This document shows, piece by piece, positions 7,801 to 54,931 of a stretch of DNA of 64,000 nucleotides (within the stretch, counting starts at the first letter, position 1; each line of letters opens with the position of its first letter). Origin of the DNA: a virus; IMG/VR virus record IMGVR_UViG_3300035187_002895, positions 5,480-69,479 of that record; one strand, given 5' to 3'. The notes beneath the pieces were generated by a model. It had not been told where the DNA came from. It saw nothing but the letters and a program-made list of their open reading frames with translations, and made no database searches. The position numbers and the translations under genes are program-made.

Positions 7801-7806
7801 TGTTTA

Positions 7807-20300: not shown

Positions 20301-20314
20301 TTCGCAAAGTTACT

Positions 20315-35918: not shown

Positions 35919-35997
35919 TGTGGCCGCAAGTTACGAATATTGAAAGAATTATTTGTTCCAATTTTTTTTGTAGCGCATTTCCATAGGGGAATTGTTT

Positions 35998-36005
35998 TAC
36001 ATTTG
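35998..36005 (+). promoter_or_regulatory. Bacteroidota-type -7 promoter box
   Basis: TACATTTG (TAnnTTTG) 4 nt before the ATG of the plus-strand island. Confidence 0.5.
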
Positions 36006-36009
36006 CCGA

Positions 36010-36726
36010 ATGGAAAATAACAAAATTGTACTCCATGGAATACATTGTTTACTTGGAGATTCAGACATAACCACTCATATTCAAAATCACGGAACCTTAA
36101 AATGGGATGAACCGTTTTCTTTAATAACCCAAATATTGGGTAAGGGCAATGGACGGGTTATGGCCGACATAGGGGCGTATATAGGAGATAGTGTAAAATG
36201 GTTTATTGATGACGGATGGGATTGCCATGCTTTTGAGCCTCAAAAAGATGCTTATGAATGTTTGGTCTTAAATGTTGGCAATGATTGTAAAACCTACAAT
36301 ATTCCAATAGGGTCTTCTCAATTGGTCAGTATGTATGCCCAAACCGAAGGAAATCTTGGAGCAAGAAGCTTAGATTTGGGAGGCGAAATTTCTGCGGTGG
36401 AATTGGATTCAATAATGGACAAAGTGGATTTCATAAAAATAGATGCCGAAGGTTTTGAGCCATTTATTTTGGAAGGTAGTAAAATCCTTTTGTCAAAAAA
36501 ACCAATAGTTGCAATTGAAATAAATCATGTAGGGCTTGCTAAATATGGATTTGTGGAAAATGATATTTTCAAGTATTTTGATAATTACATAGCCATAGAA
36601 ACATATTTTTATGCAGACTACCAATATGATGTTTTGTTGATTCCTATTGAGAAATATGAAGAATACAAAAAGATCCTTCTTGCAGCCCCTTTTTGCAATC
36701 TTAAATTACGCCATATTACTTTATGA
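36010..36726 (+). CDS. FkbM-family SAM-dependent methyltransferase
   Basis: ADIGAYIG, HAFEP and VDFIKIDAEGFE motifs; likely start MENNK at 36010. Confidence 0.85.
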   Translation: MENNKIVLHGIHCLLGDSDITTHIQNHGTLKWDEPFSLITQILGKGNGRVMADIGAYIGDSVKWFIDDGWDCHAFEPQKDAYECLVLNVGNDCKTYNIPIGSSQLVSMYAQTEGNLGARSLDLGGEISAVELDSIMDKVDFIKIDAEGFEPFILEGSKILLSKKPIVAIEINHVGLAKYGFVENDIFKYFDNYIAIETYFYADYQYDVLLIPIEKYEEYKKILLAAPFCNLKLRHITL

Positions 36727-38424: not shown

Positions 38425-40650
38425 TCAGGCCCTCACCTTTCGCAAAAAAGTTCCCCTCGGAAACAAGTTCGTCCCTGCCTTCACCGTTGTGTTTGCGTAC
38501 AAAAACGGGTTGCTGTATTCGTTCGTGTTGAACTCGTAGAAATGGGCCATTATTGTGGCCATGGTGCTATCACTTTTCGTCCTGTTGGTTATGTCAAACA
38601 TCATGTTGTCATTGATGCTCTGAATGAAAGGATACCGTATCGGTTCCTCAACAATGTTGTAGGTGTGTTCCCCCAGGAAGATGCTGTCCCCCCGAAGGAA
38701 GTCATTGAAGTATGTGGCCCCTTTCCGAACCACATCGTTCCCCTGTCCTTCTATTCCGGTATAGATTCCCACCGTTTCCCATTGAACCTGTGTCGGGCTT
38801 GCTTCGTTCAGGATTTCGGCTTCCCGTAACAGGAACCCTCCATAGCCCCTTGCGCTGAAAAAGTTCTCCACGCTTATTGAGGCGTTATTTTCGATTACAA
38901 TAGGCATGGAGTAGTACACAGCTGCCATAAGCAATTGTTCCATGTCCATGTTCGGATCGGCAGACCGATGCGTAAAGGAAAGGAACACGGCAGGGGTGGG
39001 GAAATAATTCGGCAAATTGTTTCCTGTTGTGGCCCTCACTTTTCTGTTTTCGTCCTCGTATGCCTTGTTGTAGTAGAGTTTGCCCGTTATGGCCATTTTG
39101 GAGCCTTTCCCTTTGGTGCTGGCTTTTAGGTAGGGGTCCACTCCCAAACAACCAAGTTTGCCGTTTACAGGGCATTTTACGCCCCTCTTTATTTGCATCC
39201 TGTTTATGTAGGCAGCAGGAGGTTCCCATGTCCTTTGGACGGTCCCCTTGTTGTCCTCTTTCCATCCCACTACGGTTTTCTCCTTTGGGTCCATCCAATA
39301 GAAGTAGCCCGTCCTCACCATGTCCTGAACGGACTTTATGTCTGCCGTCCTCTTGAGGGACTGGAGAATGGATATGTCGAAAGGGCAATGTTCGTTCAGG
39401 CTATTGAATGCGTCCGAAGGGGTGAAGGGGTTCTGTCGCATTTCCTCTGCGTACAGGTCGTCAAGCCCCGCTTCAAGGAGTTGTTGCCTGTCCCTGCTGA
39501 GTTTGTCCCTGCTCCCTATCCTTTCGTCATGGCCGTGTTTCTGCATCCATTCCCATTGTTCGTCATCGGGGTATTCCACAATGTCGTTCCCGTAGGCATC
39601 CGTCCAACCGGGAAGGCCCATGTAGGCAGGAAGGAACAGGGCTATCAGTTTGTTGGTAGTGGTGGGGTACTTCCCGTTCTGTCGGGTGTCAAGGTTGGCC
39701 TGTTCGTAAAACCTGCGGAACTCCTCGCCTCCCTGGTCGCCCTCTTCCGTTGTGGTGGGAAAGAAAGCAAAGCCCCTTTTGCGGCCATTCACCATCAAGG
39801 CCCTCACCTGTTTGGCCCACCATTTGGTGATTTGAACCTGCACCCATTTACCGCCCTCATCGGCAAAGAGGCCGTTCAGACGCTTTCCATCCCATCCCCG
39901 TTTGGTTAGGGCACGGAGCCTTATGGAGCCTCCAAGGGCCTTGGAAATGCTCGTTGTTTTCTTCGTTTTGGATTGCCGTTCGGGCGGTTCCACAAGAAGG
40001 AGTTCGTTCTTGAGCATCCTGTGGGTGGGAATAAGCCACAAAGGAAGGGACATAACAGGCTTGGAAATGAGTTCGTCAAAGTTCTCATCAGCAAGTTTCT
40101 GGTCGGAAGAAGAAAGCCCTATGTTCTGCTTTTCGGCCCGTATGGCAAGCCAGAACATTATCAGGTGGCCCCAAGTGGAAAGCCCCTCCTGACGGCCTTT
40201 CAGGTAGATAACGCCCAGTTCCTTGTGGTGCTGGAAAACATTCCAACAGAAATGAAGGATTTTCCGTTGGCGGTCCCTGTATTCAAGAAAGCCGTCAGAA
40301 GTTTCAAGGGCGGGTTTCCAATAGTTCAGGCCGAGGTACATCCAAGGGTTTATCCAAGTGAGAACGCCCCTGATATACATCCATTGGCCCGTATGGAAGA
40401 TTTTCTTCACCTCCTCCTTAATGAACTGTTGCTGAAGGGGCGTGTAACGGATGGAGCCGTCATCGGCCCGTTGGCCCTGTTCTATGTTCATGTAGTCAGG
40501 GATGGGCGTTCTTGTGAACTTGGCCTTGGGGTTTCCGTATCCGGGAACGGATGTAAGGTCTTCGGGAATGGGCGGGGAAATGCACTCCAGATTCCATATC
40601 GTTTCTACGATACGGTTTTTAACAAGTTTCTGGTTTTCCTTTAGTAACAT
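38425..40650 (-). CDS. terL: Terminase large subunit
   Basis: LKGRQEGLST (ATPase Walker A variant), LFADEGGKW (Walker B), GVDPY nuclease motif; 741 aa, crAss-like type. Confidence 0.9.
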   Translation of the reverse strand: MLLKENQKLVKNRIVETIWNLECISPPIPEDLTSVPGYGNPKAKFTRTPIPDYMNIEQGQRADDGSIRYTPLQQQFIKEEVKKIFHTGQWMYIRGVLTWINPWMYLGLNYWKPALETSDGFLEYRDRQRKILHFCWNVFQHHKELGVIYLKGRQEGLSTWGHLIMFWLAIRAEKQNIGLSSSDQKLADENFDELISKPVMSLPLWLIPTHRMLKNELLLVEPPERQSKTKKTTSISKALGGSIRLRALTKRGWDGKRLNGLFADEGGKWVQVQITKWWAKQVRALMVNGRKRGFAFFPTTTEEGDQGGEEFRRFYEQANLDTRQNGKYPTTTNKLIALFLPAYMGLPGWTDAYGNDIVEYPDDEQWEWMQKHGHDERIGSRDKLSRDRQQLLEAGLDDLYAEEMRQNPFTPSDAFNSLNEHCPFDISILQSLKRTADIKSVQDMVRTGYFYWMDPKEKTVVGWKEDNKGTVQRTWEPPAAYINRMQIKRGVKCPVNGKLGCLGVDPYLKASTKGKGSKMAITGKLYYNKAYEDENRKVRATTGNNLPNYFPTPAVFLSFTHRSADPNMDMEQLLMAAVYYSMPIVIENNASISVENFFSARGYGGFLLREAEILNEASPTQVQWETVGIYTGIEGQGNDVVRKGATYFNDFLRGDSIFLGEHTYNIVEEPIRYPFIQSINDNMMFDITNRTKSDSTMATIMAHFYEFNTNEYSNPFLYANTTVKAGTNLFPRGTFLRKVRA

Positions 40651-40687
40651 TCTCCGTTTTTTTAAGGGTGTGTGTTTTGGGTAAATA

Positions 40688-40715
40688 GGCGCAATTATGC
40701 GACTATAAAGTAGTT
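40688..40715 (+). other. attI-like recombination site 1
   Basis: GGCGCAATTATGCGACTATAAAGTAG^TT, identical to 43666-43693; ends in the GTT core that begins the first cassette. Confidence 0.75.
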
Positions 40716-41487
40716 AGCCGCAATACAGAGAAACCCTGCCAACCGAAGTGGCGAAGTGTTCTGCATCTTTTTCAATTCCTATGAAATTGCGGTTTAACAT
40801 TTCACAGGCTAATCCTGATTTATTACTACCCATCGTAAAATCTAATACCGTTTGACCTTCCAATGAATAAGTGTTTACTATGTACTTACATAATTCAATA
40901 GGTTTTTCAGTTTTATGAAATGTCTTTCCTTCACTTTCGGCAGTCTTAAAATACTGAACGCTTCGTGGGTATCTTAGCCCATCACTTTTTACTTCAACTT
41001 GTTCAAAACTACCATACACATCATTTTCAGTTTGTTGTTTCCTTACACCTTTATTGTAGGCAGTTCCTTCTGTCATTTGTGGGTAATAAACAGGCGTTCC
41101 TTTGCAGAAAACAACAATATCTTCGTGTGCTACCATTGGTCGTTTCTTAGCGTTTAAGAAGCCTGTTGCCTTTGATTTTTCCCAAACCCAAGTATATTTA
41201 AACATCTTCGGGTTGCTCATTATTAGATTGCTTGTAAATGGTTGCTGTGAATGAAATACTATTGGTGCATTTTGTTTAGATAATCTATTTACTTGTTGCC
41301 ACATTTTTTCAAAGTCTATCACATTATCCCAACTGCATTGTGTAGTGCCAAATGGTAAATCACAATAAATTAAGTCAATACTATTGGATGTTAAAAGCGG
41401 TAAAACTTCAAGGCAATCACCCTGATAGAATGTACTGCGGCTAACATCGGTTTTGCAATAGTGGGGCTTTTGTGCTATATCAATCAT
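40714..41487 (-). CDS. DNA methyltransferase, N6A/N4C family (cassette-borne)
   Basis: GDCLE, DLPFG (DPPY variant), HKTEKP, VLDFTMGS, FIGIE. Starts inside the attC-like site; its stop TAA is the TTA of the core. Confidence 0.9.
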   Translation of the reverse strand: MIDIAQKPHYCKTDVSRSTFYQGDCLEVLPLLTSNSIDLIYCDLPFGTTQCSWDNVIDFEKMWQQVNRLSKQNAPIVFHSQQPFTSNLIMSNPKMFKYTWVWEKSKATGFLNAKKRPMVAHEDIVVFCKGTPVYYPQMTEGTAYNKGVRKQQTENDVYGSFEQVEVKSDGLRYPRSVQYFKTAESEGKTFHKTEKPIELCKYIVNTYSLEGQTVLDFTMGSNKSGLACEMLNRNFIGIEKDAEHFATSVGRVSLYCG

Positions 41488-41569
41488 TTGTAATTCTATT
41501 AAATATTAGTTGTGGGTTGAACATTTGTGCCTTGAAACCCCACCATCGCAAAGCCGTATTCCGTTAGCC
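41436..41569 (+). repeat. attC-like site 1
   Basis: TGCGGCTAAC-ATCGGTTTTGCAATAGTGGGG...CCCCACCATCGCAAAGCCG-TATTCC-GTTAGCC imperfect palindrome. Confidence 0.85.
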
Positions 41570-41570
41570 A

Positions 41571-41786
41571 CTATTGCTTCAATCTCCAAACTTGGTGTAG
41601 TGTATTATCACCTATCATTTCTGCTAAGTGTTTCTCGCAACAATGAGTGTAGTCTTCATAAGTTTTACCCTCTCCAATGTCTTGCACCTGAAATACGGCT
41701 TTGTCGTTACAATTAAGCTCGCAACAGTGCAATGACGGCTGGCTTTGTTCGTTCAATTGTGGTGTTTCAAATAACCTTTCCTGCAT
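41571..41786 (-). CDS. Small Cys/His protein (cassette remnant)
   Basis: 71 aa, CCELNC...HCCEKH possible Zn finger. Confidence 0.55.
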   Translation of the reverse strand: MQERLFETPQLNEQSQPSLHCCELNCNDKAVFQVQDIGEGKTYEDYTHCCEKHLAEMIGDNTLHQVWRLKQ

Positions 41787-41789
41787 ATT

Positions 41790-42215
41790 TCAATCCTTTC
41801 CTTTCCGTTTCTTTTTCAGGGCAAGCTTCAGGTCCTCCACGGCCTTCCGTAGAATCAATGTGCAATTTATAACTTTTTCCGAACTCTGTATCTTCGGGAG
41901 CCGTTTCTGTACCTTCACCAATGCCCTCGTAAGGGCCTGTGCCTCCGTCTTCATCTGGAACGCCTCATAGTCCCGTTCCAATGTGCTATTGGCCGCATAA
42001 GCGGGTAGGCCCCCCTTCCACAATGAACGGCCCGGATAGAAAAAGTTGGTTGGATGGACATACTCCTTCTTGACGGGTCCGAATTGGTGCATTACGGCAG
42101 ACAGGTCGTCATTGACGGCCACCACCTGCCACTTTGCCGTTACATACCGGCCTCTTACAAATATAAAATCGCCAGTCTTTATCATGTGCTTTCTCCGTGT
42201 TGGTTGTCGCTTCAT
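41790..42215 (-). CDS. Hypothetical protein
   Basis: 141-aa ORF with backbone-like composition. Confidence 0.55.
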   Translation of the reverse strand: MKRQPTRRKHMIKTGDFIFVRGRYVTAKWQVVAVNDDLSAVMHQFGPVKKEYVHPTNFFYPGRSLWKGGLPAYAANSTLERDYEAFQMKTEAQALTRALVKVQKRLPKIQSSEKVINCTLILRKAVEDLKLALKKKRKGKD

Positions 42216-42462
42216 GGATGTATTTAACTCGTTTTAAAATGTATTCCTTTTTCGTTTCCGCAAACAGGACAAACTCCCCCTTGTACACCCTCCTCAGATA
42301 CTGCCTGATTTCCATGTAGGTTTGGGTGCGGAAGTAATACTTGCTTACAGGAATGATGTGTCCCAAAGGAAGGGACTGTAGCCTGTCGGCAAATATTTTA
42401 CTCAGCAGTTTCGGGGGTTTCCTTCCCCTTGTTGCCCTTTCTTTCAACAGCCGGACTTTCAT
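42109..42462 (-). CDS. Hypothetical basic protein (possible DNA-binding)
   Basis: 117 aa with RGRKP motif; overlaps neighbours. Confidence 0.45.
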   Translation of the reverse strand: MKVRLLKERATRGRKPPKLLSKIFADRLQSLPLGHIIPVSKYYFRTQTYMEIRQYLRRVYKGEFVLFAETKKEYILKRVKYIHEATTNTEKAHDKDWRFYICKRPVCNGKVAGGGRQ

Positions 42463-42964
42463 GTTTTATTTCCCGTAATGCAGCTTCCAAAGCCCCTTCA
42501 CCAAAATCACTTTCCAGTTTTCCGGTATTGAAGTCGGCCTCGGCCTTTTCATTTTTCTTAAACAAATCTTCTGCCATTCTTTTGATTTCGTCCATGACAG
42601 GCTTTAACTTTAGGCTATTCTCAATCTTAACCTTGTAAGAGGAGTTTTCGTTTGGCCTTCCGTCAGGTTCAGGAGTGCGGATGGATTCGCAGACATTGTG
42701 GTACATTCTCACCATGGACCAATAGGCTTCGGCCTTTATGTTGAGGGCAAAGTGTTCCCTGCTCCCAATCAAAAGGACCTCATCAGGAAGGGAAAACCCC
42801 ACCCTACGGGTTGTTTCGGCCACCCTTCCCTCCCATGTGAGGCTCAGGGGAATCGTGTCGCTGTACACCAACTCCACCCACTCTTTTTGCCTTTCGGTAA
42901 GTTTTATTGTGGGCAGAGAGGATGTACTTAATTCCTCTGAAGGTTGTTTCTTTGACTTCGCCAT
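42398..42964 (-). CDS. Hypothetical protein (candidate terminase small subunit)
   Basis: 188-aa helical protein upstream of terL; candidate by position only. Confidence 0.45.
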   Translation of the reverse strand: MAKSKKQPSEELSTSSLPTIKLTERQKEWVELVYSDTIPLSLTWEGRVAETTRRVGFSLPDEVLLIGSREHFALNIKAEAYWSMVRMYHNVCESIRTPEPDGRPNENSSYKVKIENSLKLKPVMDEIKRMAEDLFKKNEKAEADFNTGKLESDFGEGALEAALREIKHESPAVERKGNKGKETPETAE

Positions 42965-43229
42965 TTTGAATTTGTTCTAAAAGTTGTTCGATTAGGTCCA
43001 CCAGGGGAGGAACCATTCCGATTATGTAGCTGTCCTGTTCGCTATGGATTCCGGTGGCTACAAGAAAGTTGCCCCCTCTAACATAGATTTCATAGCATTT
43101 AAGGTGGTTGTTAAAAACTCTTCTCCAGCAATCCTTGGATGGCGGAAGACAATCCACTCTTTCCGGCCTTTTTTTGGGGCTATCCTTGGTTTGGCCCGTG
43201 TCCTGCTGATCCGTTGGGTTAGTTTCCAT
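42804..43229 (-). CDS. Hypothetical protein
   Basis: 141-aa ORF with A-rich start context. Confidence 0.45.
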   Translation of the reverse strand: METNPTDQQDTGQTKDSPKKRPERVDCLPPSKDCWRRVFNNHLKCYEIYVRGGNFLVATGIHSEQDSYIIGMVPPLVDLIEQLLEQIQNGEVKETTFRGIKYILSAHNKTYRKAKRVGGVGVQRHDSPEPHMGGKGGRNNP

Positions 43230-43351
43230 GATTTTTTAAGGTCTGTTTTTCGTGCCTTTGGGAAGCGTTGGATTCCTGTTTGCATAAATTCCCCGAAGGA
43301 ATAAAACCGAAGCCGTCCTGTGTCCCGTGTCCATTTTTCTGTACCGTCCAT
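43058..43351 (-). CDS. Hypothetical protein
   Basis: 97 aa, TAATG coupling to the upstream gene. Confidence 0.4.
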   Translation of the reverse strand: MDGTEKWTRDTGRLRFYSFGEFMQTGIQRFPKARKTDLKKSWKLTQRISRTRAKPRIAPKKGRKEWIVFRHPRIAGEEFLTTTLNAMKSMLEGATFL

Positions 43352-43629
43352 TATTCATTCAGGAGCGTTTCATACATTTCCAGAAGTGTTTCTGCCTTTA
43401 GAAATTCTGAACTATAGGCAAGGGAGAACCAATTGGGGCAATCTGGAAGGGTTTGGTCCCAATTCCATTTGGTTTTGAGTTGTTCAAAGATTTCCCTTGC
43501 TTTCGGAGGTTCTTCAAAGTCTAATGCGGTAAACAGACGGGAAAGGTCTGATTGCATTTCTTTTTCCTTTCTCACCCAGTAAAGGGACTTCACCTGAAAG
43601 TAGAATGGTATTAATTTGGTTATGTTCAT
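43351..43629 (-). CDS. Hypothetical protein
   Basis: 92-aa ORF beginning just beyond attI-like site 2. Confidence 0.55.
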   Translation of the reverse strand: MNITKLIPFYFQVKSLYWVRKEKEMQSDLSRLFTALDFEEPPKAREIFEQLKTKWNWDQTLPDCPNWFSLAYSSEFLKAETLLEMYETLLNE

Positions 43630-43665
43630 TTCGATTTTGTTTTTGTTTCGCTTTTTGGTCGTGTT

Positions 43666-43693
43666 GGCGCAATTATGCGACTATAAAGTAGTT
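43666..43693 (+). other. attI-like recombination site 2
   Basis: GGCGCAATTATGCGACTATAAAGTAG^TT, 28/28 identical to site 1. Confidence 0.75.
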
Positions 43694-43710
43694 ATAAAAC
43701 ATTAAAACGA

Positions 43711-43859
43711 TTTTATAACAAAGTATATAAGTAATGTTTGGGTTGGTTTACCAATCTAATAACCTTCCAGTAATTAACCACCTCATTCATTAGTAGGGTG
43801 CAAGGTGTTCTCTAAACACGAACCACCCAAACACATACTTATATACTCAATCGTTAGCG
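43711..43859 (+). repeat. attC-like site 2
   Basis: TTTTATAAC-AAAGTATATAAGTAATGTTTGGGT...ACCCAAACACATACTTATATACT-CAATC-GTTAGCG. Confidence 0.85.
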
Positions 43860-44312
43860 GTAATTTAAGACAGAGAACGTGCCAACCTTTGCCTTCTCCC
43901 CGAAAATGATAATACACATCGGCAACCAAAGTCCACGTTCTTCATCATTAAAATTTACCTCGCCATTGATAAAACGAATTTCTGCTTTTACACAAACTTC
44001 CGCCCACCATTTTGTATTGCTTCTTACAGGTATTAAACAAACTTTCGTTCCTCCAAACCTTTCAGCATCATTACACGCTTTTTTTACCCACTTATTCAAA
44101 TCTCTGCTAAATGGTGGGTTCATCCAACAATTACCTTCCCAATTCATAGCAAGTGAATTATCTTCCTTTGTCCAATATTCGGGCAGTTTGTAGTTTAATG
44201 CACTTGCACAAACATCTCTTGTTAAGCCAAATTCGTTTATCAATGGCTGTACTATTTTAAGCGGAGTACTATACTCAACGCTATTACTTTCTCCTACTAC
44301 TTGTGTTCCCAT
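43854..44312 (-). CDS. Phage N6-adenine methyltransferase (Dam-like, PF05869-type), cassette-borne
   Basis: YSTP...DVCAS...WMNPPFS...LIPVRSNTKWW...IRFINGEVNF; stop codon lies in the GTTA core. Confidence 0.85.
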   Translation of the reverse strand: MGTQVVGESNSVEYSTPLKIVQPLINEFGLTRDVCASALNYKLPEYWTKEDNSLAMNWEGNCWMNPPFSRDLNKWVKKACNDAERFGGTKVCLIPVRSNTKWWAEVCVKAEIRFINGEVNFNDEERGLWLPMCIIIFGEKAKVGTFSVLNYR

Positions 44313-44342
44313 ATTTTAAATTTTAATTTCTGAATAATAAAC

Positions 44343-44479
44343 TACCGCTAACACGGGTTTTGCGTCAGCAGGGGTTTCGTTTTTTAATTCAGCTTTTTTT
44401 CATTCTATTAAACTTTAGTTGTTAATTAATCATTTGTGCTTCTAAGCCCTGCCGAACGCAAAGCCCGAAACCGTTACCT
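44343..44479 (+). repeat. attC-like site 3
   Basis: TACCGCTAAC-ACGGGTTTTGCGTCAGCAGGG...CCCTGCCGAACGCAAAGCCCG-AAACC-GTTACCT. Confidence 0.85.
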
Positions 44480-44485
44480 GCAAGG

Positions 44486-44698
44486 CTACGATTGACGTTC
44501 CAAATCAGGCGAAGGCTCACACTTTGTATCGGGCATTTGATTAAAAACTTGTTTAATTGTGCTTACATCATATCCATCGAGTTCCAATGCTAATTCAAGT
44601 GCATTTCTAACTGCATACGGATAATAGCAAGTTTTTAAATCAATGGTTACAATTGGTGTTTGCCTTTCGTCTTGGTTTCTTTCTACAATAATTTTCAT
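44486..44698 (-). CDS. Hypothetical protein (cassette-borne)
   Basis: 70-aa ORF filling the cassette. Confidence 0.6.
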   Translation of the reverse strand: MKIIVERNQDERQTPIVTIDLKTCYYPYAVRNALELALELDGYDVSTIKQVFNQMPDTKCEPSPDLERQS

Positions 44699-44736
44699 TT
44701 CGTTTTTAAATTAAATTCCTACTGATAAACCGCCCA

Positions 44737-44825
44737 GCAGGTAACAGCGGTTTGGCAAAAGCTGCCATTGAAATTTTTGCAAAAATTGAGCATCCGTTAT
44801 GCAGCCTTCGCCAAGCCGAGAACCA
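44737..44825 (+). repeat. attC-like site 4 (right core lost)
   Basis: GCAGGTAAC-AGCGGTTTGGCAAAAGCTGC...GCAGCCTTCGCCAAGCCG-AGAACC, then ATC where GTT is expected. Confidence 0.8.
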
Positions 44826-45098
44826 TCATCCCTTCCATATCACAAGGTGTTTAGGGCCGTTTTCAGAGGCCAAATGAAAATCATACCGGAAACGACCCTT
44901 CACCCCGTTCAGCTTCCGCCATCGGGCAAAAGTGGACCTCACCGTGTCGTATTGGTCCCTTCCCACTCCCAACAGAACCACATAGGTTACATTCGGATGC
45001 AGAAAGTTCGTGTAGTCGTATGTCAAAGGACGGCCCCGCCCGTCTGACTTGGGAAACAATGGGGCCTCCGTTTTCTTCTTCTTCTTCTTCGTTTTCAT
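44826..45098 (-). CDS. Hypothetical basic protein (possible DNA-binding)
   Basis: 90 aa, poly-Lys and GRGRP motif. Confidence 0.55.
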   Translation of the reverse strand: MKTKKKKKKTEAPLFPKSDGRGRPLTYDYTNFLHPNVTYVVLLGVGRDQYDTVRSTFARWRKLNGVKGRFRYDFHLASENGPKHLVIWKG

Positions 45099-45733
45099 TT
45101 CCGTCTTCGTTTCACATATCCCATCCGTTCCGCATCAGGGCCGTGAGCCAGCACCATCCTTCTGCGAACCAAAAAGCCTCCGTCCCATCCCACACGAACA
45201 TTGGATTCGTCCCCCCAAAAGAGAACGGTGTTTTCGGGGAAGTGTTCGTTCTGTCCCGATACCACTCCCCTATCGGTGTAGAACTCCCGTATCTTTTCCA
45301 CGGGCTTTTGGAGGGTGTCGTAACTTATCAATTCCACATTGGGAAGAATCAGGCCCGATTTGGACCGGGCCGTTTGTATGGGCTTGCAATAAATGTACTC
45401 CCCCACCATTCGGTCCCCAACGCTTATGATGCTCTGAGGAAGCACAAGAAGGTGTCCGTTTATCTTCGGGGTGTTTCCCTTGTAAGTGGAATGGGCCTCC
45501 GAAAACCAAAACCGAACCTTTTCCCCCACAATGGGGGTGTTCAGTTCGTCCTTGAGCGGGGCCTTTACCACCGTTCCCTCCTCGCATAACCCGTTCGTTT
45601 CGTTGTATATATTGGAAGGGGCATGGAGCAAAAGGGTTCCGTGCTGTATGGTTTCCTCGTAAATGCCACGGATGGCAACAAGGTATTCCCTGATGGGTTG
45701 GAGGTTGGGGGTATATTCCGTTACGAAAGCCAT
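45095..45733 (-). CDS. Tandem GroES-like domain protein
   Basis: Two GroES-like halves (LQPIREYLV...EGTVVKAP...VGEKV; EYIYCKPI...KSGLILP...RGVV). Confidence 0.6.
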   Translation of the reverse strand: MAFVTEYTPNLQPIREYLVAIRGIYEETIQHGTLLLHAPSNIYNETNGLCEEGTVVKAPLKDELNTPIVGEKVRFWFSEAHSTYKGNTPKINGHLLVLPQSIISVGDRMVGEYIYCKPIQTARSKSGLILPNVELISYDTLQKPVEKIREFYTDRGVVSGQNEHFPENTVLFWGDESNVRVGWDGGFLVRRRMVLAHGPDAERMGYVKRRRK

Positions 45734-46023
45734 TACAACAGGATGCAGTGAATGTCGTGTTCCCGAAGGATGAGGTATTCCACCTTGTCAAATTCCACCC
45801 TTGTTCCGGCCCCTTTTGTGTAAAGGACCTTTTGGCTGTGTTTGATTATTTCGCATTTGTTTCCTACACAAATCACTTCTCCTTGGGGAGGGGATTCCTT
45901 TGCGGTATCGGGAATGATAAGGGTTCCTTTTTCGTCATAGAAATCAGCGGGTTTGTCAGGAAGCACAAGTACCCTTGTGTCCACCATCACTACATTGGGA
46001 TGTTTCATTTTTTGTTTTTGCAT
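45733..46023 (-). CDS. groES: Co-chaperonin GroES
   Basis: RVLVLP...GTLIIPDTAKESPPQGEVICVG...KVLYTKGAGTRV...EYLILREHDI. Confidence 0.9.
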   Translation of the reverse strand: MQKQKMKHPNVVMVDTRVLVLPDKPADFYDEKGTLIIPDTAKESPPQGEVICVGNKCEIIKHSQKVLYTKGAGTRVEFDKVEYLILREHDIHCILL

Positions 46024-46030
46024 TAGCGCA

Positions 46031-46060
46031 CAAATGTAAAGGGATTATTTCACAATCAAA
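46031..46060 (-). promoter_or_regulatory. Bacteroidota-type promoter for groES
   Basis: Minus strand TTTG-N18-TACATTTG. Confidence 0.55.
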
Positions 46061-46109
46061 ACAAAAAAAATTCAGGCTTTATTTTCCGGTTTCGCTTTGC
46101 TGGCAAATA

Positions 46110-46137
46110 GGCGCAATTGTTCGCATACAGCGTAGTT
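46110..46137 (+). other. attI-like recombination site 3 (variant)
   Basis: GGCGCAATT-GTTCGCATACAGC-GTAG^TT: same first 9 bp, same length and same GTAGTT end as sites 1 and 2. Confidence 0.7.
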
Positions 46138-46142
46138 ATGTG

Positions 46143-46370
46143 TCATTTTAGACGAGCATACCATTTCAATCTATCATCATTACCAATTTCAACCAATTCA
46201 AATTTAACCGTTCTGTTTTCTAAGATAGCCCAAGGATGAAAATTAAAACTCAAAGGGTCTATTGGTAATTCACCATTTCTATTACCAGTTAAATTTGAAT
46301 TATCGCACTTTACAACCCAATAAGGTTCAATGTTGAAATTGGTTGATTTAATTAAAGTTCCTGTTTCCAT
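46143..46370 (-). CDS. Hypothetical protein (cassette-borne)
   Basis: ORF 46143..46469; likely start METG at 46370, since the longer form reads through the attC-like site. Confidence 0.55.
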   Translation of the reverse strand: METGTLIKSTNFNIEPYWVVKCDNSNLTGNRNGELPIDPLSFNFHPWAILENRTVKFELVEIGNDDRLKWYARLK

Positions 46371-46389
46371 ATTTATTTGAATTAAAAAC

Positions 46390-46486
46390 GACACATAACA
46401 AAGTGTATAAGAAAGTTTGCTATAAAGTTTAGTGCTAATTTGAAAGTTTCTACAAGCAAACCTTCTCATACACCCAGTCGTTATAG
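46390..46486 (+). repeat. attC-like site 5
   Basis: GACACATAAC-AAAGTGTATAAGAAAGTTTGCT...AGCAAACCTTCTCATACAC-CCAGTC-GTTATAG. Confidence 0.85.
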
Positions 46487-46492
46487 GTAAGG

Positions 46493-46735
46493 CTAAAGAC
46501 CGAGTAACTCCGACAATTCATTTTGCTTTTTAGTTAGCCATTCCTTTGCTAATCTTTTACCATCTTCTAAATCGTAGCCTTCTCCGATATATTCGTTTCC
46601 AATAGTTACAGAATAGCTATCACTTTCTTTCCATCCTTTCCATTCAATTAGGCATTGACCTAATGGTGTTTCAGAAATAACGTGAGTATAATGGCTCACT
46701 CCTTGTTTTGGGTCTTTTGGTTCTGTCCAATTCAT
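46493..46735 (-). CDS. Hypothetical protein (cassette-borne)
   Basis: 80-aa ORF filling the cassette. Confidence 0.65.
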   Translation of the reverse strand: MNWTEPKDPKQGVSHYTHVISETPLGQCLIEWKGWKESDSYSVTIGNEYIGEGYDLEDGKRLAKEWLTKKQNELSELLGL

Positions 46736-46759
46736 TTTATTAAAATTTGTGAGAAGCCC

Positions 46760-46894
46760 TACCTATAACAGCACATAGGCAATATGGTGGGGTTCTCGGT
46801 TAATATTAAGTTTCGTTTTCAATTCATGTTTTGTGCTTACAGAGAGGTTAGTGTTCCAAAATCCGCCACATCGCCTATCTGCATCACGTTAGTA
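46760..46894 (+). repeat. attC-like site 6
   Basis: TACCTATAAC-AGCACATAGGCAATATGGTGG...CCGCCACATCGCCTATCTGC-ATCAC-GTTAGTA. Confidence 0.85.
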
Positions 46895-46900
46895 GCCATT

Positions 46901-47383
46901 TTAGGACAGACGTACATACCGCCCTTTAATGCTACAATTTTTTAGTATTTCAGCGTTTTCTTCACCATAAGCAATCAATACGCTTGGTGCTCCAGCCGTT
47001 CCACCTTTTTCGCCTGTAACGTGGTAAAAAGACAATCTACCTTTAATGAATAGTATTGCAGTTGCTTTATCCCATACACATTTAAAAAACATTTTCGTTT
47101 CAGTCCTTGCAAAAGTCAAGGCTATACAATTTCCGTGCATTACTGCCTTTTCTAAAAAAAGTTCTGTGTATTTTCCGTAAGGTGGATTACACCAAACTCT
47201 ACCATACCAATTTTGCATCAGTCCGTTATCATTAATATTAAAATGATTTTTAGCTGTGTCCCAAGGTCTTTCAATCGGGCTACACGGATCTAAATCAAAT
47301 TCGCCTAATGCTTTTACTAATTCGGGTGGGGTAAGCCACTCGTCTTTTCCTGTACTTGTATTACCTTCAAATGTTACATTCAT
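46901..47383 (-). CDS. Phage N6-adenine methyltransferase (Dam-like, PF05869-type), cassette-borne
   Basis: DEWLTPP...FDLDPCS...VWCNPPYG...ARTET...LFIKGRLSF. Confidence 0.9.
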   Translation of the reverse strand: MNVTFEGNTSTGKDEWLTPPELVKALGEFDLDPCSPIERPWDTAKNHFNINDNGLMQNWYGRVWCNPPYGKYTELFLEKAVMHGNCIALTFARTETKMFFKCVWDKATAILFIKGRLSFYHVTGEKGGTAGAPSVLIAYGEENAEILKNCSIKGRYVRLS

Positions 47384-47411
47384 ATTTTTTAAATTAATTC
47401 GTAAAAAAAAC

Positions 47412-47511
47412 GGCTACTAACACGCAATTGGCAAAATAAAAGCCATCAAGTGTAGTGCTAAACTTCAACGGTAGTGCAAGGCTTTTACTTCGCCAATCGC
47501 CACCGTTACCA
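47412..47511 (+). repeat. attC-like site 7
   Basis: GGCTACTAAC-ACGCAATTGGCAAAATAAAAGCC...GGCTTTTACTTCGCCAATCGC-CACC-GTTACCA. Confidence 0.85.
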
Positions 47512-47517
47512 CCAATG

Positions 47518-47931
47518 CTATAAGACACGGTAGTAGTTCTTTTCAAATATTCTGACAACCATATCACGTTCCCATTTTGACAACTTTGACTGTTTGTTTT
47601 GAATAAGTCCATATTCTTTGACAATATCAGTTCTATCAGGCAATTTGCGTTCATATCGACTTTCTCCATACCCATACAAATCATTCATATAAGGCATATA
47701 AATCATTGAAGCCATTGCCATAATTCCACCAAGTTTTGATGAAACGTGTTTATGTTTCCTTTGCTCTGTTTTTATCGGAGCATATTTTACACCGTTTAAA
47801 TCAAAACTTTCATCGTATGAATGTGAATTTGGTTCATCAACTATAATCACATCAACACCTTTGTTTTTTAATGCTTCGGCAACTGCTTTCCCAGAGCCAT
47901 CAATTCCAATTATTCCTATTTTATTTTCCAT
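47518..47931 (-). CDS. Hypothetical protein with Rossmann-like N-terminus (cassette-borne)
   Basis: 137 aa starting KIGIIGIDGSGKAVAEAL..GVDVIIVD. Confidence 0.6.
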   Translation of the reverse strand: MENKIGIIGIDGSGKAVAEALKNKGVDVIIVDEPNSHSYDESFDLNGVKYAPIKTEQRKHKHVSSKLGGIMAMASMIYMPYMNDLYGYGESRYERKLPDRTDIVKEYGLIQNKQSKLSKWERDMVVRIFEKNYYRVL

Positions 47932-47962
47932 TTGTTTGTTAAATTAAATTCATTAAAAGCAC

Positions 47963-48052
47963 TGGTGGTAACAGCACATAAGCAAAAGCCCAAAATCCAA
48001 CCGCACAATGCCACCGCTATTTGTGCCTTCGCTTATCTGCAAAACGTTACCG
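47963..48052 (+). repeat. attC-like site 8
   Basis: TGGTGGTAAC-AGCACATAAGCAAAAGCCCAAA...TTTGTGCCTTCGCTTATCTGC-AAAAC-GTTACCG. Confidence 0.85.
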
Positions 48053-48072
48053 CACCACCTTACCGCACCACC
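48047..48072 (+). repeat. 13-bp direct tandem duplication at the right junction of array 3
   Basis: TTACCGCACCACC twice, starting exactly at the G^TT position. Confidence 0.8.
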
Positions 48073-48080
48073 CCTCCTGC

Positions 48081-48488
48081 TCACTGCACCACCTCATTTC
48101 CCCGCCTGAGTTCCCTTTGGTTTCCGGTTTCGGTTTTGTGGCATCCCTTACACAACACTTCCAACAGGGAAGGGTCCTCCACGAAAAGCCGTTCACAAAA
48201 TCCCGGAAGGTCTTCGTATCTCCGAAGGCTCCCAACAGGAACGATGTGGTTCACTTCTACATTCCTCCTGTCGTAAAACCTTTGGCAGCGGGAACACAAG
48301 TAGGCCACCCGCTTACTGCGGCCCACATACGAAACGGATGAGGCCCGTTTCAGGGCTACATTGAAGGGCTTCCACCAACGGGATAGGTTCCGTAACGCTG
48401 ACCGTATCTTGCCCATATGGGCCGATTGCGTTTCCGTTCCGCTGTTGCGGGTCCGCTCAACTCTGGGGGCTTTTACCGTTCGTTTCAC
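48081..48488 (-). CDS. HNH-family endonuclease-like protein
   Basis: CSRC...EVNHIVPVG...LEVLCKGCH. Confidence 0.75.
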   Translation of the reverse strand: MKRTVKAPRVERTRNSGTETQSAHMGKIRSALRNLSRWWKPFNVALKRASSVSYVGRSKRVAYLCSRCQRFYDRRNVEVNHIVPVGSLRRYEDLPGFCERLFVEDPSLLEVLCKGCHKTETGNQRELRRGNEVVQ

Positions 48489-53701: not shown

Positions 53702-54007
53702 TTAACAAACTGAACATCCAATTTTACCAGGTCTTTCCATTCTTAAAACGCCTTGCCTACAATTCGGGCAAATGTTTTTTCCTTCATTGAATGTAACCTC
53801 GTAGAAGTAATCTATGCCCTTAAAATCGTCATCATCATTTGACAAATACCCAAAATGAATGGCCTTCTCCATTTGCTCCTTCTCCATTTCCTTAGCCTTT
53901 TCAATCAATTCGTACATAACGCCATGAACGCCCACCGTTTCCTCAAGTTTGACAAACTCGGCCTCAAGCCACTCAACTGCCGTCTGCTGTTTCCGTTCCG
54001 TTTCCAT
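53702..54007 (-). CDS. TAVEW-family small protein with Zn-ribbon tail
   Basis: KQQTAVEWL...AKEMEKEQM...YFYEVTF, followed by CPNC...CSVC. Confidence 0.65.
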   Translation of the reverse strand: METERKQQTAVEWLEAEFVKLEETVGVHGVMYELIEKAKEMEKEQMEKAIHFGYLSNDDDDFKGIDYFYEVTFNEGKNICPNCRQGVLRMERPGKIGCSVC

Positions 54008-54014
54008 ATGTCTG

Positions 54015-54209
54015 TTATTCGTTTGTGTCGTCCATGTCGTCCCCTCTCGAAACAGGAAGGAAATGTTCACATTCCCCATCCCCGTCAGGCTCACAAGCCA
54101 TCACCTCATCCGTTACCTCCCGTATGTCACTCCTGAAAAGGAAATAACGAAGGCACATTTCCCCTAAAGGGCATTTCCTGTTGGAACAAAGAGCAAATCC
54201 AGAAGCCAT
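54015..54209 (-). CDS. Small Cys-rich protein
   Basis: LCSNRKCPLGEMCLRY...CEHF; upstream TACATTTG box. Confidence 0.55.
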   Translation of the reverse strand: MASGFALCSNRKCPLGEMCLRYFLFRSDIREVTDEVMACEPDGDGECEHFLPVSRGDDMDDTNE

Positions 54210-54247: not shown

Positions 54248-54931
54248 TTATATTTCCGGTTTTGTTCCGTTTTTAAAATCAATTGTCAATTGTGAGGCAA
54301 AATCCTTAAAACGCTTCTCCTGAGCAAGGAAATAGTCCCTGTCCAATTCCACTCCCAGAAAGCTCAAATCGGCCTTATAGGCGGCAATTCTGGAAGAACC
54401 GCTCCCAAGGTGGGTATCAAGAATCTTGTCGCTCGGTTTGGCGTAGTTCTTAAATATCCAATCGTATAATTCAGTAGGTTTTTGCGTTGGGTGTATTCTA
54501 AATTCATCGTTTGTATCTGAAATAAAACCCATAGTTCTCAATGTAAACATTTTTACAACTTTAGTAAAAGAAGTCCAACACAATTCTGCATCAGCAAAAA
54601 CACTTTTATTATCTGTATTGTTTATTTTATTCCAAACTATCCAACATTTGCTAACTGGTATTTTATCTGTAAAATAATTTCCGCCCCATATTAATTGATT
54701 TTTAGAAACCCTAAAAAGTTCATCAAAATATTCTTGTTGCGGTGTTTCCCTATCCCATTTTACATCTTTTAATTCTGGTCTATTATTATTTACGCCCCAA
54801 CCATTTTTACCTCTTGCATAAGAAATCCCATAAGGCGGGTCCACAACGGCCAAATCGAAATACTTATCAGGAAAGCGAGCCATTACCTCCATGCAATCCT
54901 GGTTATACGCCACCGATTCCACCTGTTTCAT
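54248..54931 (-). CDS. DNA methyltransferase, N6A/N4C family
   Basis: NQDCME, VDPPYG, IHPTQKP, ILDTHLGSGS, GVELD. Confidence 0.92.
   Translation of the reverse strand: MKQVESVAYNQDCMEVMARFPDKYFDLAVVDPPYGISYARGKNGWGVNNNRPELKDVKWDRETPQQEYFDELFRVSKNQLIWGGNYFTDKIPVSKCWIVWNKINNTDNKSVFADAELCWTSFTKVVKMFTLRTMGFISDTNDEFRIHPTQKPTELYDWIFKNYAKPSDKILDTHLGSGSSRIAAYKADLSFLGVELDRDYFLAQEKRFKDFASQLTIDFKNGTKPEI

Follow-up and report, generated by a model that had tools for sequence, protein, structure and literature searches.

Positions 40688 to 48072 of a 64,000-nucleotide stretch (hereafter the window) of a freshwater phage record (G000; 69.5 kb, 69,479 bp, 72% complete) raise the question of how a phage comes to hold several islands of small genes alternating with hairpins, and which enzyme would move them. 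The islands, together with a fourth just outside the window, are quite probably the recombinase-less platforms of a phage integron-like cassette system, which would mean that four insertion sites of the phage hold small accessory genes in the form of swappable single-gene cassettes.

Organisation of the islands

The record contains a conserved site, with GTAG|TTA as its end, in four copies, in keeping with the several platforms per phage proposed in the preliminary description. Three lie in the window, each heading one to four cassettes: GGCGCAATTATGCGACTATAAAGTAGTTA occurs exactly at 40688-40716 and 43666-43694 (0 matches in window shuffles), and a repeat-family search gave a diverged copy at 46110-46138. 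The fourth, on the record's minus strand (G000:C1:3636-3664), falls outside the window. Hairpins were located with R1, a covariance model built in this analysis for attC-like hairpins. The features of the window are:

40675..40716, plus strand: platform 1, attI-like; exact repeat, repeat family D2; G of the crossover GTT at 40713
40713..41569, plus strand: cassette 1; N6_N4 DNA methyltransferase ORF 40714-41487 (minus; PF01555, E 4.7e-23) and hairpin 41439-41569 (R1 101.4 bits)
41563..41789, plus strand: island 1 terminal unit; AT-rich, 71-aa ORF 41571-41786 (minus)
43653..43694, plus strand: platform 2, attI-like; exact repeat; G of the crossover GTT at 43691
43691..43859, plus strand: mini-cassette 2a, without ORF; hairpin 43713-43859 (R1 51.9 bits)
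43853..44479, plus strand: cassette 2b; Dam-type methyltransferase ORF 43854-44312 (minus; PF05869, E 6.9e-22) and hairpin 44346-44479 (R1 110.9 bits)
44473..44831, plus strand: cassette 2c; 70-aa ORF 44486-44698 (minus) and hairpin 44739-44831 (R1 40.8 bits, E 1.3e-5; not in the training set of the model)
46097..46138, plus strand: platform 3, diverged attI-like copy from the repeat search; G of the crossover GTT at 46135
46135..46486, plus strand: cassette 3a; small minus-strand ORF (listed 46143-46469, start uncertain) and hairpin 46393-46486
46480..46894, plus strand: cassette 3b; 80-aa ORF 46493-46735 (minus; phrog_33319, function unknown) and hairpin 46763-46894
46888..47511, plus strand: cassette 3c; Dam-type methyltransferase ORF 46901-47383 (minus; PF05869, E 3.7e-13) and hairpin 47415-47511
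47505..48052, plus strand: cassette 3d; 137-aa ORF 47518-47931 (minus; weak Rossmann-type matches) and hairpin 47966-48052

Further crossover GTTs have their G at 41563, 43853, 44473, 46480, 46888, 47505 and 48046. Platform 1 lies at a distance of 38 nt from the start codon of the gene for the large terminase subunit (38425-40650, minus strand; phrog_6681, E 3.4e-48), and platform 3 is upstream, in the sense of the genes, of a GroES-like gene (45733-46023; PF00166, E 1.5e-15). The GTT at 48046 closes the array of island 3, and beyond it lie short direct repeats (D3) and a backbone HNH gene.

Island 1 departs from the alternation of cassette and palindrome that had been described, consisting of one hairpin and then the 71-aa ORF unit, for which neither a hairpin nor a core of its own was found; this ORF has no Pfam or PHROG match, and the unit abuts the stop codon of backbone ORF 41790-42215. 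The description of every palindrome as ending in a GTT core fails for the last hairpin of island 2 (end ~44831), whose right core lacks the GTT, a point counted against the proposed system; this core also shares bases with the stop codon of backbone ORF 44826-45098. Cassette 1 has the cores GTTAGCCGCA and TGCGGCTAAC, and its ORF as called enters the hairpin, with the TTA of the core as its stop codon. In mini-cassette 2a, nothing but the loop CATTAAAACGA, which recurs in other phages, stands between the cores GTTATAAAA and TTTTATAAC, and the hairpin comes next.

DNA methyltransferases make up three of the eight ORFs of the window (seven cassette ORFs and the 71-aa ORF). Relatives of cassette 3c (87-91% protein identity) occur in long arrays of low-GC phages, and the 149 ORFs of 23 other arrays include 16 N6_N4, three C5, one EcoRI-type and one Dam methyltransferase. 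Since the cargo is mainly orphan DNA methyltransferases, it would probably shield phage DNA from host restriction enzymes.

Hairpin structure and core complementarity

A scan of all 64 kb for TAAC...GTTA arm pairing found such sites only between 41442 and 48049. The three islands had been described as arrays of site, cassette and palindrome, and a covariance model had been suggested as a check; R1 bears the description out, as all eight of its sites in the window (the hairpins listed above) are within the islands headed by the three site copies, none occurs in the remainder of the window and a ninth is in the island just outside it (L004). Over 20 sites, 86.0% of cells are paired, compared with 61.4% in shuffles (none of 500 is as high) and 31-42% with slid partners. 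Changes on both sides are seen in 16 of 21 pairs, and pairing is kept through compensatory changes at a mean column identity of 50%. The loops have one to three copies of a TTTGTGCTA-like motif in common.

Strand exchange at G|TT during insertion would leave each cassette starting with its own 10-nt right-core half. As claimed in the preliminary description, the first 9-10 nt are the reverse complement of the cassette's own downstream core, in all nine cassettes of the record. Across all arrays collected, 23 of the 29 pairs of adjacent sites show complementarity of at least 9 nt, and two of the six exceptions span backbone between islands; complementarity of at least 9 nt between the two cores of one hairpin was found in only 1 of 44. 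The cores conform to RYYYAAC/GTTRRRY-type boxes. By consensus cores, covariation and the link to phage P12002L discussed below, the hairpins resemble canonical attC sites.

A reading of the hairpins as regulatory elements (terminators, processing sites or promoters), with genes shuffled by homologous recombination in the manner of PeSL cassettes, is very improbable. The hairpins are intergenic, would be transcribed and share the loop motif, and parts of one study document PeSL shuffling and mini-circles in T4-type phages (PMC2839356). Their sequences nevertheless differ while pairing is kept, no Rfam family matches them, and they show a tight, oriented linkage to a tyrosine recombinase gene (below). 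The 10-nt cores, moreover, flank the gene and not the hairpin, a pattern that homologous exchange does not yield.

Cassette turnover among related phages

The integron-type footprint at G|TT predicts turnover, which related sequences display. The same site occurs in 10 other viral stretches with eight different first cassettes, divergence beginning right after GTT(A), and in total at least 12 different cassettes occupy the first position after it, the break being exactly at G|TT. Both flanks are homologous between L009 and L012 (88% and 86.5%), and everything between the GTT of the site and that of the last hairpin differs. Near-identical genomes in other lake metagenomes show exact losses, of cassette 1 (40713-41562; joint 40712>41563, run X5) and of cassettes 3a-3c (joint 46134>47505, run X3), each on a single contig with a depth of 2.3-2.8, a short side of 24-25 nt and 90% likeness. 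Loose ends in metagenomes join the site to cassettes known from L008 and L010, and cassettes recur in platforms other than their own: the island-3 position of L027 holds an N6_N4 methyltransferase cassette with its hairpin. The comparison of related phages that had been proposed thus yielded different cassettes and exact losses at G|TT; an empty platform, with the site directly followed by backbone, was found at none of 14 sites, and this was counted against the proposal.

Two breaks are at the left core and not at G|TT, and were likewise counted against it. The Dam cassette of island 2 (2b) occurs in the island-3 platform of L007 (94.4% identity over 521 nt) with another, truncated hairpin, and one metagenome contig joins 44348 to 47969. 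The unrelated cores and hairpins carried by homologous Dam genes (~80% nucleotide identity) were weighed in the same way.

In eight terminase relatives (~75% nucleotide identity), the stretch 40651-41789 is absent, and the upstream gene has a stop that overlaps with the start codon of terminase. By such comparison of sequences, the islands are insertions. Neither site nor hairpins are present in these eight, and R1 has no match in nine hit-less loci fetched with the terminase (seven such relatives and two more distant). The absence of the site from array-less relatives, and the spread of platforms, for which the proposal does not account, were both counted against it.

The ~50-nt site is conserved between phages with only about three other proteins in common, which suggests selection on the site. 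Its conservation bears on a different and unlikely history, in which the arrays are fossils: cassettes were assembled elsewhere, in recombinase-bearing phages or bacteria, whole islands including the site entered by homologous or illegitimate recombination between co-infecting phages, and no site-specific recombination occurs in the lineage today. Such a history fits the presence or absence of whole islands, site included, among relatives, the decayed ends (no GTT at 44826, the truncated hairpin of L007) and the lack of a recombinase in G000, G002 and the records of terminase relatives. Homologous exchange would be supported by the ERF annealing protein of G002 and by Gp157-like genes common to G000, G001, G002 and G006. 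Against the fossil reading stand the conservation of the site, the variety of first cassettes that break exactly at G|TT, and the exact single- and three-cassette losses within near-identical genomes.

A recombinase linked to the hairpins in other phages

The preliminary description had no integrase in view, and none emerged from the whole record: PF00589 has 0 matches in its 69,479 bp (14 of 14 control genomes match), and a recombinase profile has 0 at E<=1 (positive control 3 of 3). Nor was a recombinase found in the complete 39-kb phage G002, which has two copies of the site (25 of 26 Pfam families seen), in a phage of 642 kb that has three hairpins of this kind, or in the records of terminase relatives.

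The earlier idea of a tyrosine recombinase from elsewhere agrees with the presence of a short enzyme of this kind beside the hairpin family in many other phages. In the 21 loci retrieved by means of the methyltransferase cassette, R1 detected 94 sites, spread over 17 loci and always on the opposite strand from the gene, and in G014 a distance of 53 nt separates the start of a 282-aa recombinase from the first cassette. Relatives of this recombinase occur in 135 viral stretches, 80 of which were kept. R1 gave 169 sites in 63 of these 80 loci, every one on the other strand from the recombinase and 168 upstream of it (hand count), placing the hairpin family directly upstream of a short (~277 aa) IntI/Xer-like recombinase; 13 of the 17 loci with no R1 match have less than 600 nt upstream of the gene. 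The site adjoining these recombinases reads approximately ACATATA(A/G)TAG|TTA, like the ...GTAG|TTA here. The platform site's long left portion (GGCGCAATT...) turned up beside none of the recombinases, which was counted against the proposal. The enzyme lacks the IntI-specific segment (20 residues compared with 63 in V. cholerae IntI4) and scores as near to the integron-integrase model as to XerC or XerD.

It is improbable that a canonical host IntI acts on the sites, in which case the arrays would be ordinary CALINs and would, on the proposal of Qi et al., carry cassettes to and fro between integrons of the host and phages. The core boxes are compatible with such action, and parts of their paper report that P12002L_attC2, which may not be an R1-matched site, was recombined by IntI1 in E. 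coli (PMC9892861). The hairpin family, however, has its own recombinase, without the IntI-specific segment, adjoining arrays in 63 of 80 loci. Parts of the IntegronFinder 2.0 paper describe complete integrons as rare in Bacteroidetes, and the nearest cultured relatives of the phage's terminase all infect Flavobacteriia. Among 185,579 species-representative genomes, the platform site has only five matches, in unrelated taxa, which is near the chance level (~4 calculated).

In the favoured cassette system, circular single-gene cassettes with an attC-like folded site would be inserted one by one at the attI-like platform by a tyrosine recombinase exchanging strands at G|TT. This enzyme would most likely be a member of the short IntI/Xer-like family, and such insertion may continue today. 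Because no recombinase is encoded in the available 72% of the genome, it would have to act in trans, supplied by a co-infecting phage, a prophage or the host; this is an assumption, and the lack of a recombinase in the record, G002 and the 642-kb phage was counted against the proposal. The cassette genes are on the strand opposite to that in bacterial integrons, so the phage's own minus-strand operons would read through them, and a new cassette would land in a promoter-distal position immediately upstream of a backbone gene, for instance that for terminase or GroES.

Comparison with known systems

Classical integrons (class 1 and the Vibrio cholerae chromosomal integron) likewise have single-gene cassettes, each with an imperfect palindrome, and a crossover at G|TT in which the first bases of the cassette complete its own right core. 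In the other phages compared here, insertion is also at one site beside the recombinase gene, which is beyond the site and points away from the array, like intI. The present genome differs in having four platforms and no recombinase, in the opposite strand of the cassette ORFs relative to site polarity, in a paired core of 10 nt and in the internal loop separating the core from the inner stem, which has 2 nt instead of 6 nt; the enzyme linked to the hairpins in other phages is also shorter, as described above.

Xer-dependent modules, such as the dif modules of Acinetobacter plasmids and the integration of CTX phage with its folded single-strand substrates, share an Xer-sized tyrosine recombinase, inverted core sequences flanking genes and possibly a folded single strand. 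The flanking 10-mers here are cassette-specific and not copies of a conserved 28-nt dif-like site, and the recombinase scores equally near the integron-integrase model and XerC/XerD.

In parts of Arbiol et al. 2010 (PMC2839356) and Comeau et al. 2014 (PMC4122927), PeSLs are described as conserved sequences that combine a promoter with a terminator and undergo recombination by homology. These parts describe small accessory genes in plastic regions of virulent T4-type phages, with repeated stem-loop boundaries, exchange between relatives and circular forms. The elements here differ in that they vary in sequence, keep their structure by covariation, cross over at a fixed point and are linked with a tyrosine recombinase.

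Whether the system is undescribed had been left open, and phage attC clusters without integrase (CALINs) are already in print (Qi, Rajabal, Ghaly, Tetu and Gillings 2023, Front Microbiol; PMC9892861). Parts of that paper describe integrase-less attC-type arrays in virulent phages, with methyltransferase cassettes including N6_N4 and a proposed anti-restriction benefit; five phage attC sites were recombined by IntI1 in E. coli, and the sites were interpreted as targets of bacterial IntI. One of its phages, Polaribacter phage P12002L, with two predicted sites there, carries distant members of the present hairpin family: its minus-strand methyltransferase genes are flanked by matching GTTA.../...TAAC cores, and with its filters switched off R1 matches the intergenic sites of this phage, three at E<0.01. 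Relative to the main text parts of that paper, in which they do not appear, the present results add a conserved insertion site common to several loci and unrelated phages, the comparison of relatives differing in their cassettes and a dedicated short recombinase.

Phage record and likely host

The 69,479-bp record, of which the window covers bases 5480-69479, is a linear IMG/VR virus with a completeness of 72% (CheckV), derived from a tailed phage in which the cassette islands are flanked by the terminase large subunit gene, a GroES-like gene and an HNH gene; a DnaB-type helicase, additional methyltransferases and very long ORFs are encoded elsewhere. The closest cultured relatives of the terminase belong to phages of Flavobacterium, Cellulophaga, Tenacibaculum and Maribacter (86 of 87 matching records; best identity 26%), and these relationships make a host within the Bacteroidota likely. 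The region is partly present in 24 runs from 22 studies among the matches listed, almost all of which are lake-water metagenomes.

Window 38425-40650, minus strand: terminase large subunit

This phage and G002, an otherwise unrelated 39-kb phage, have in common two small proteins with 81-83% identity. They lie outside any recognised hairpin array and may therefore be additional mobile genes.

Window 53702-54094 and 1301-1531: small proteins common to both phages
G002 4666-4875 and 883-1284: their counterparts

Hairpins and cassette boundaries

A crude scan for paired TAAC...GTTA arms located sites only between 41442 and 48049. Twenty sites were aligned, 8 of them belonging to this record and the other 12 to related contigs. 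Mean column identity is 50%, and the sole invariant columns, only 11 in number, are those of AAC-A in the left core and C-GTT-A in the right core. The sites fold into one outer 4-bp helix and two inner helices, and 86.0% of cells are paired over the 20 sites, against 61.4% after shuffling (observed value reached in 0 of 500) and 31-42% when the partners are slid; changes on both sides of the pair, which preserve pairing, occur in 16 of 21 pairs. The paired fraction over 42 matches is 93.6%, in an alignment that was itself fitted to the model. A covariance model of these attC-like hairpins built in this analysis (R1) has an asymmetric junction between core and inner stem, with 2 unpaired nucleotides on the left and 6 on the right. 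It places 8 sites in the window, every one inside the islands and one of them (44739-44831) outside its training set, and 0 in the remaining 56 kb, bearing out the palindromes of the preliminary description; the hairpins have 0 matches in Rfam at E<=1.

The sites have outer cores of the RYYYAAC and GTTRRRY type and inner paired boxes, as integron attC sites do, and, like them, conserve structure over sequence, while the start of each cassette completes the right core of its own site at the crossover point, written here as G^TT. The preliminary description had also noted that the first 9-10 nt of each complete cassette are the reverse complement of the core of its own downstream hairpin, and this is true of all nine cassettes in the record. 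Across all arrays collected, 23 of 29 adjacent pairs are complementary over at least 9 nt; when the two cores belong to one hairpin, the median match is 4 nt, and at least 9 nt is reached in 1 of 44. Core complementarity ends at 10 nt. A phage-borne, integron-like arrangement at G^TT is confirmed as an observation, and its first interpretation is supported.

All eight window ORFs, comprising seven cassette ORFs and a 71-aa ORF in the terminal unit of island 1, are on the minus strand, and the sites read on the plus strand. Other arrays show the same opposition between the strand of the site and that of the query gene, for 94 of 94 sites in one set and 169 of 169 in another. The TTA of the core supplies the stop codon of two cassette ORFs, and the methyltransferase ORF of cassette 1, as called, begins within its own hairpin. 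The ORFs are not co-oriented from attI to attC behind a promoter at the integrase end; because they are reversed, transcription of the phage operon would cross the cassettes towards the insertion site and then enter the next backbone gene. With three sites in island 2, four in island 3 and no recombinase in the record, these two islands are CALINs (clusters of at least two attC sites with no integrase close by) provided that the sites count as attC; a single site is present in island 1, and likewise in the island outside the window. In island 2, the GTT is missing from the last hairpin.

A conserved loop, CATTAAAACGA, recurs on a small hairpin with a variable stem.

Window 43691-43720: CATTAAAACGA-loop hairpin, the ORF-less first "cassette" of island 2
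L060 (cultured Cellulophaga phage phi39:1), about 905-975: CATTAAAACGA-loop hairpins in tandem upstream of the small terminase gene
L061 (Polaribacter phage P12002L), 30005-30059 and 30906-30958: CATTAAAACGA as the loop of short sites
L157 and L167 (two other phages), just after the attI-like site: CATTAAAACGA-loop hairpin as the first unit after a recombinase-linked site

A TTTGTGCTA-like motif is common to the variable loops of hairpins that are otherwise dissimilar, in one to three copies spaced by about 21-22 nt. It might serve as a promoter element or bind an accessory protein.

Window 41465-41540, 44396-44449 and 46808-46838: TTTGTGCTA-like motif
Other contigs, loops of most long hairpins: TTTGTGCTA-like motif

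Four short ACCGCACCACC-like direct repeats mark the exact right end of island 3 (window 48036-48103), and the array of L007, a locus on another viral contig, is joined to a later copy of this repeat.

The platform site

The attI-like site heading the islands is exact over 29 nt at 40688 and 43666 (0 occurrences in shuffles), with a diverged copy at 46110 and a fourth on the opposite strand, 1.8 kb ahead of the window start, which heads a single cassette, its cores being GTTGGGCGTA and TACGCCCAAC. Each array has the conserved 28-nt site only once, and in no case does it stand on both sides of a gene.

The site pattern is also present in 10 stretches on 9 other viral contigs and in three stretches of metagenome contigs, two of them in a contig corresponding to G002. 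Species-representative genomes contain five matches (Paenibacillus, Collinsella, Fictibacillus and a Myxococcales MAG), which are treated as chance since about four are expected by calculation for a pattern with 19 fixed bases, both strands of 596 Gb being counted. No empty platform is seen among the 14 sites. The site was also considered as a promoter of the next backbone gene, an explanation that misfits the fourth platform and the loci L009, L010 and L012, in which a convergent gene and its terminator precede the site.

Islands as insertions

The backbone order is preserved, without islands 1 and 2, in eight relatives whose terminase genes are about 75% identical at the nucleotide level. 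In these phages the start codon of the terminase overlaps the stop codon of the upstream gene, indicating that in the present phage the site itself is part of the insertion. The position of island 3 is occupied in seven of the eight by a shorter, unrelated stretch and in L027 by its own array, comprising a diverged N6_N4 methyltransferase cassette with its own hairpin. R1 finds 0 sites in nine terminase-fetched loci (these seven and two more distant relatives; about 190 kb).

Cassette turnover at the sites

Alignment of related phages, proposed in the preliminary description as a check on cassette exchange, reveals differing cassettes at the same site with homology breaking at GTT. Divergence begins directly past GTT(A) in all 10 further site stretches, each of which has the core of its first cassette located downstream; these stretches carry 8 different first cassettes, none of which is any of the four in this record. 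The loci L009 and L012, with 88% identity in the left flank and 86.5% over 2.4 kb in the right flank, each contain two differing cassettes between the GTT of the site and the GTT of the last hairpin. A minus-strand reading, with the classical order of gene then attC and crossover at the left cores, was rejected because these two loci, whose last hairpins differ, lose homology at the site GTT and regain it 1 nt ahead of the GTT in the last hairpin. In L007, an upstream flank identical to that of island 3 over 118 nt (100%) leads into another first cassette and then into the Dam cassette of island 2 (94.4%).

Contigs from four other lake metagenomes were mapped onto the region, with uncovered stretches and contig ends at repeats excluded as evidence. 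One contig from run X5 joins 40712 to 41563, the exact loss of cassette 1 from G^TT to G^TT, and one from run X3 joins 46134 to 47505, the exact loss of cassettes 3a-3c; loose contig ends join the site to cassettes known from L010 and L008. The exact-loss joints favour cassette movement with moderate support, since they are single low-depth contigs with a short side of 24-25 nt. Two further joints (43696 to 46395 and 40725 to 47969) appear to reflect mapping between similar hairpins.

Two breaks at a left core do not fit crossover at G^TT: the Dam cassette of L007 has the same cores with a different, truncated hairpin, homology ending at the left core, and a contig from run X5 joins the left core of the Dam cassette to the hairpin of cassette 3d. 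In four phage lineages, homologous Dam genes that are about 80% identical in nucleotide sequence have cores that are unrelated yet internally matched. At Dam relatives with at most 76% identity, and at L035 with 97%, R1 finds 0 sites.

A short tyrosine recombinase beside the same hairpins in other phages

The preliminary description saw no integrase in the window and proposed a tyrosine recombinase from the host or from elsewhere in the genome. The remainder of the record proved equally devoid of one: PF00589 has 0 matches in all 69,479 bp, and no integrase gene adjoins an attI-like site. A 17-member profile of the short recombinase described below has 0 matches at E<=1 in this record and in 10 terminase-relative records, and recovers 3 of 3 control records. 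The record being 72% complete, a recombinase gene could lie in the missing part, where it would adjoin none of the four platforms. G002, a complete phage with terminal repeats, carries the same site twice, and apart from this its overlap with the present phage is limited to about three proteins; it has 0 matches to PF00589 and 0 site-specific recombinases among the 25 Pfam families listed (of 26; 44 ORFs of at least 90 aa), and encodes an ERF annealing protein. Among the other array-bearing records tested, PF00589 matches only in G007, where a 416-aa integrase of another (SAM_5) type lies about 14 kb from the array.

Of 21 loci fetched with the cassette 1 methyltransferase, 17 contain R1 sites, 94 in total and every one on the opposite strand to that gene. 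One of these records, G014, encodes a 282-aa tyrosine recombinase with its start codon 53 nt from the first cassette; the gene has the orientation of the cassette genes and faces outwards from the array. The recombinase scores under the cut-offs of all curated models and is roughly as near to the two integron-integrase models as to XerD and XerC; its alignment to the integron-integrase model TIGR02249 is in two stretches (cut-off 265), and it aligns to V. cholerae IntI4 (2a3v) in two pieces, with residues 178-197 (20) against IntI4 180-242 (63), so that the IntI-specific segment is absent.

Bit scores of the G014 recombinase against curated models
Archaeal XerA/integron-integrase model: 192.6
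TIGR02249: 186.6
XerD: 167.9
XerC: 160.8

Of the candidates scored, 1,892 proteins fall into this short-recombinase family at E<=1e-20, the best 120 being 260-305 aa long. The profile identified 135 viral stretches. Among the 80 that were kept, 63 loci have R1 sites, 169 altogether; none of these is on the strand of the recombinase, and 168 lie upstream of it; 13 of the 17 recombinase loci without sites extend less than 600 nt upstream of the gene. From the start of the recombinase to the first cassette, the intervening sequence ends in approximately ACATATA(A/G)TAG^TTA in most loci. This end resembles the crossover-proximal part of the platforms (CTATAAAGTAG^TTA and CATACAGCGTAG^TTA) and not their left part. 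One G014 cassette (locus L076, contig 7155-8390) holds two ORFs on the other strand, the orientation of classical integrons, so the reversal of cassette genes is not absolute.

Cassette cargo

Three of the eight window ORFs encode DNA methyltransferases (one N6_N4 and two Dam-type). The 149 distinct ORFs of at least 60 aa in 23 other arrays include 16 N6_N4_Mtase, 3 C5 methylase, 1 EcoRI methylase and 1 Dam, and most of the 149 are without a Pfam match. The obvious reading of this cargo is that it would protect from restriction. The 71-aa ORF of island 1 has 0 relatives in viral contigs, and the 70-aa cassette protein has near-identical copies on contigs of 262 kb and 128 kb. When the ORFs of six array-bearing records were compared all against all, only the Dam cassette and a Gp157-like protein were common to all.

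Several further occurrences accompany these arrays. L072, in a 642-kb uncultured phage (LR756502.1), has three hairpins of the same family at 20050-20840, including one that matches the cassette 2c hairpin at 84.5% identity, and PF00589 has 0 matches across the 642 kb. Phages of low GC content (31-32%) carry arrays of 5-8 hairpins of the family (L062 and L063 in G008, L064 in G006, L067 in G007), headed by differing, non-homologous left ends and not by the 28-nt site. Outside the islands, a C5 cytosine DNA methyltransferase ORF split by an intein (Hint_2 and Intein_splicing matches) occupies window 62579-64000 and extends past the window end, and AT-rich stretches at 54248-54931 and 35992-36726, which have no hairpin of the family nearby, hold other methyltransferase genes, of the N6_N4 and FkbM types.

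Proposed mechanism and significance

The islands are probably orphan platforms, at several loci, of a phage integron-like system in which a short-family enzyme acts in trans at G^TT. A short-family tyrosine recombinase would exchange strands at this point, one partner being the platform site and the other the site, folded or paired, on a circular cassette, and the phage would retain platforms and cassettes and not the enzyme, which could be supplied by a co-infecting phage, a prophage or the host. A wider reading is put forward more tentatively: unrelated, virulent phages of freshwater Bacteroidota may keep several site copies without a recombinase and draw on a shared pool of anti-restriction and other accessory cassettes, served in trans by a distinct integron lineage with a short recombinase without the IntI-specific domain and with cassettes reversed for operon expression, the exchange network then being a property of the community and not of one genome.

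The cassette logic of integrons is found here in phages with four oddities, namely reversed genes, several platforms per genome, a site common to unrelated phages, and an enzyme associated with the system elsewhere that lacks the IntI domain. If the platforms are active, virulent phages without a recombinase could exchange anti-restriction methyltransferases gene by gene, which bears on the speed at which phages escape host defences and on the spread of accessory genes between lineages. The 28-nt site, the hairpins of about 90-135 nt and a 277-aa enzyme also constitute a simple assay system for an Xer-sized recombinase that would act on folded sites without the IntI domain.

Comparison with known systems

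Phage CALINs are already published. Qi et al. 2023 (PMC9892861) report a screen of 10,705 phage genomes that yielded 17 CALINs and five methyltransferase cassettes, for which protection from restriction is suggested, and recombination by IntI1 in E. coli of five of six tested phage attC sites. The Polaribacter phage P12002L from that study has the same layout by eye; with its filters off, R1 weakly matches the intergenic sites of this phage at 39119, 38876 and 30005 (all E<0.01), and with default filters gives 0 matches on P12002L and phi39:1. Part of the hairpin family is therefore already in print, read there as targets of bacterial IntI. A literature search returned only this paper and general integron papers, and no description of the short-recombinase phage system, of multiple recombinase-less platforms in one phage or of the shared site. 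IntegronFinder 2.0 reports that complete integrons are rare in Bacteroidetes.

The nearest phage-specific analogue is the PeSL cassette of T4-type phages, which acts by homology (PMC2839356). PeSL cassettes are defined by one conserved promoter-plus-terminator repeat, whereas the present sites have a mean column identity of 50% and a crossover fixed at the cores. Xer/dif modules carry a conserved dif-like site of about 28 nt on both sides, whereas here the inverted 10-mers flanking a gene differ for each cassette.

The usual view of integrons is that of a bacterial device for which a special integrase is the defining part, with the IntI-specific domain taken as the mark of such integrases. With respect to site polarity, the recombinase gene of other phages occupies the position that intI has in a classical integron, but the cassette ORFs here are reversed. 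Classical integron integrases exchange strands at G^TT, and the same is proposed for the short family.
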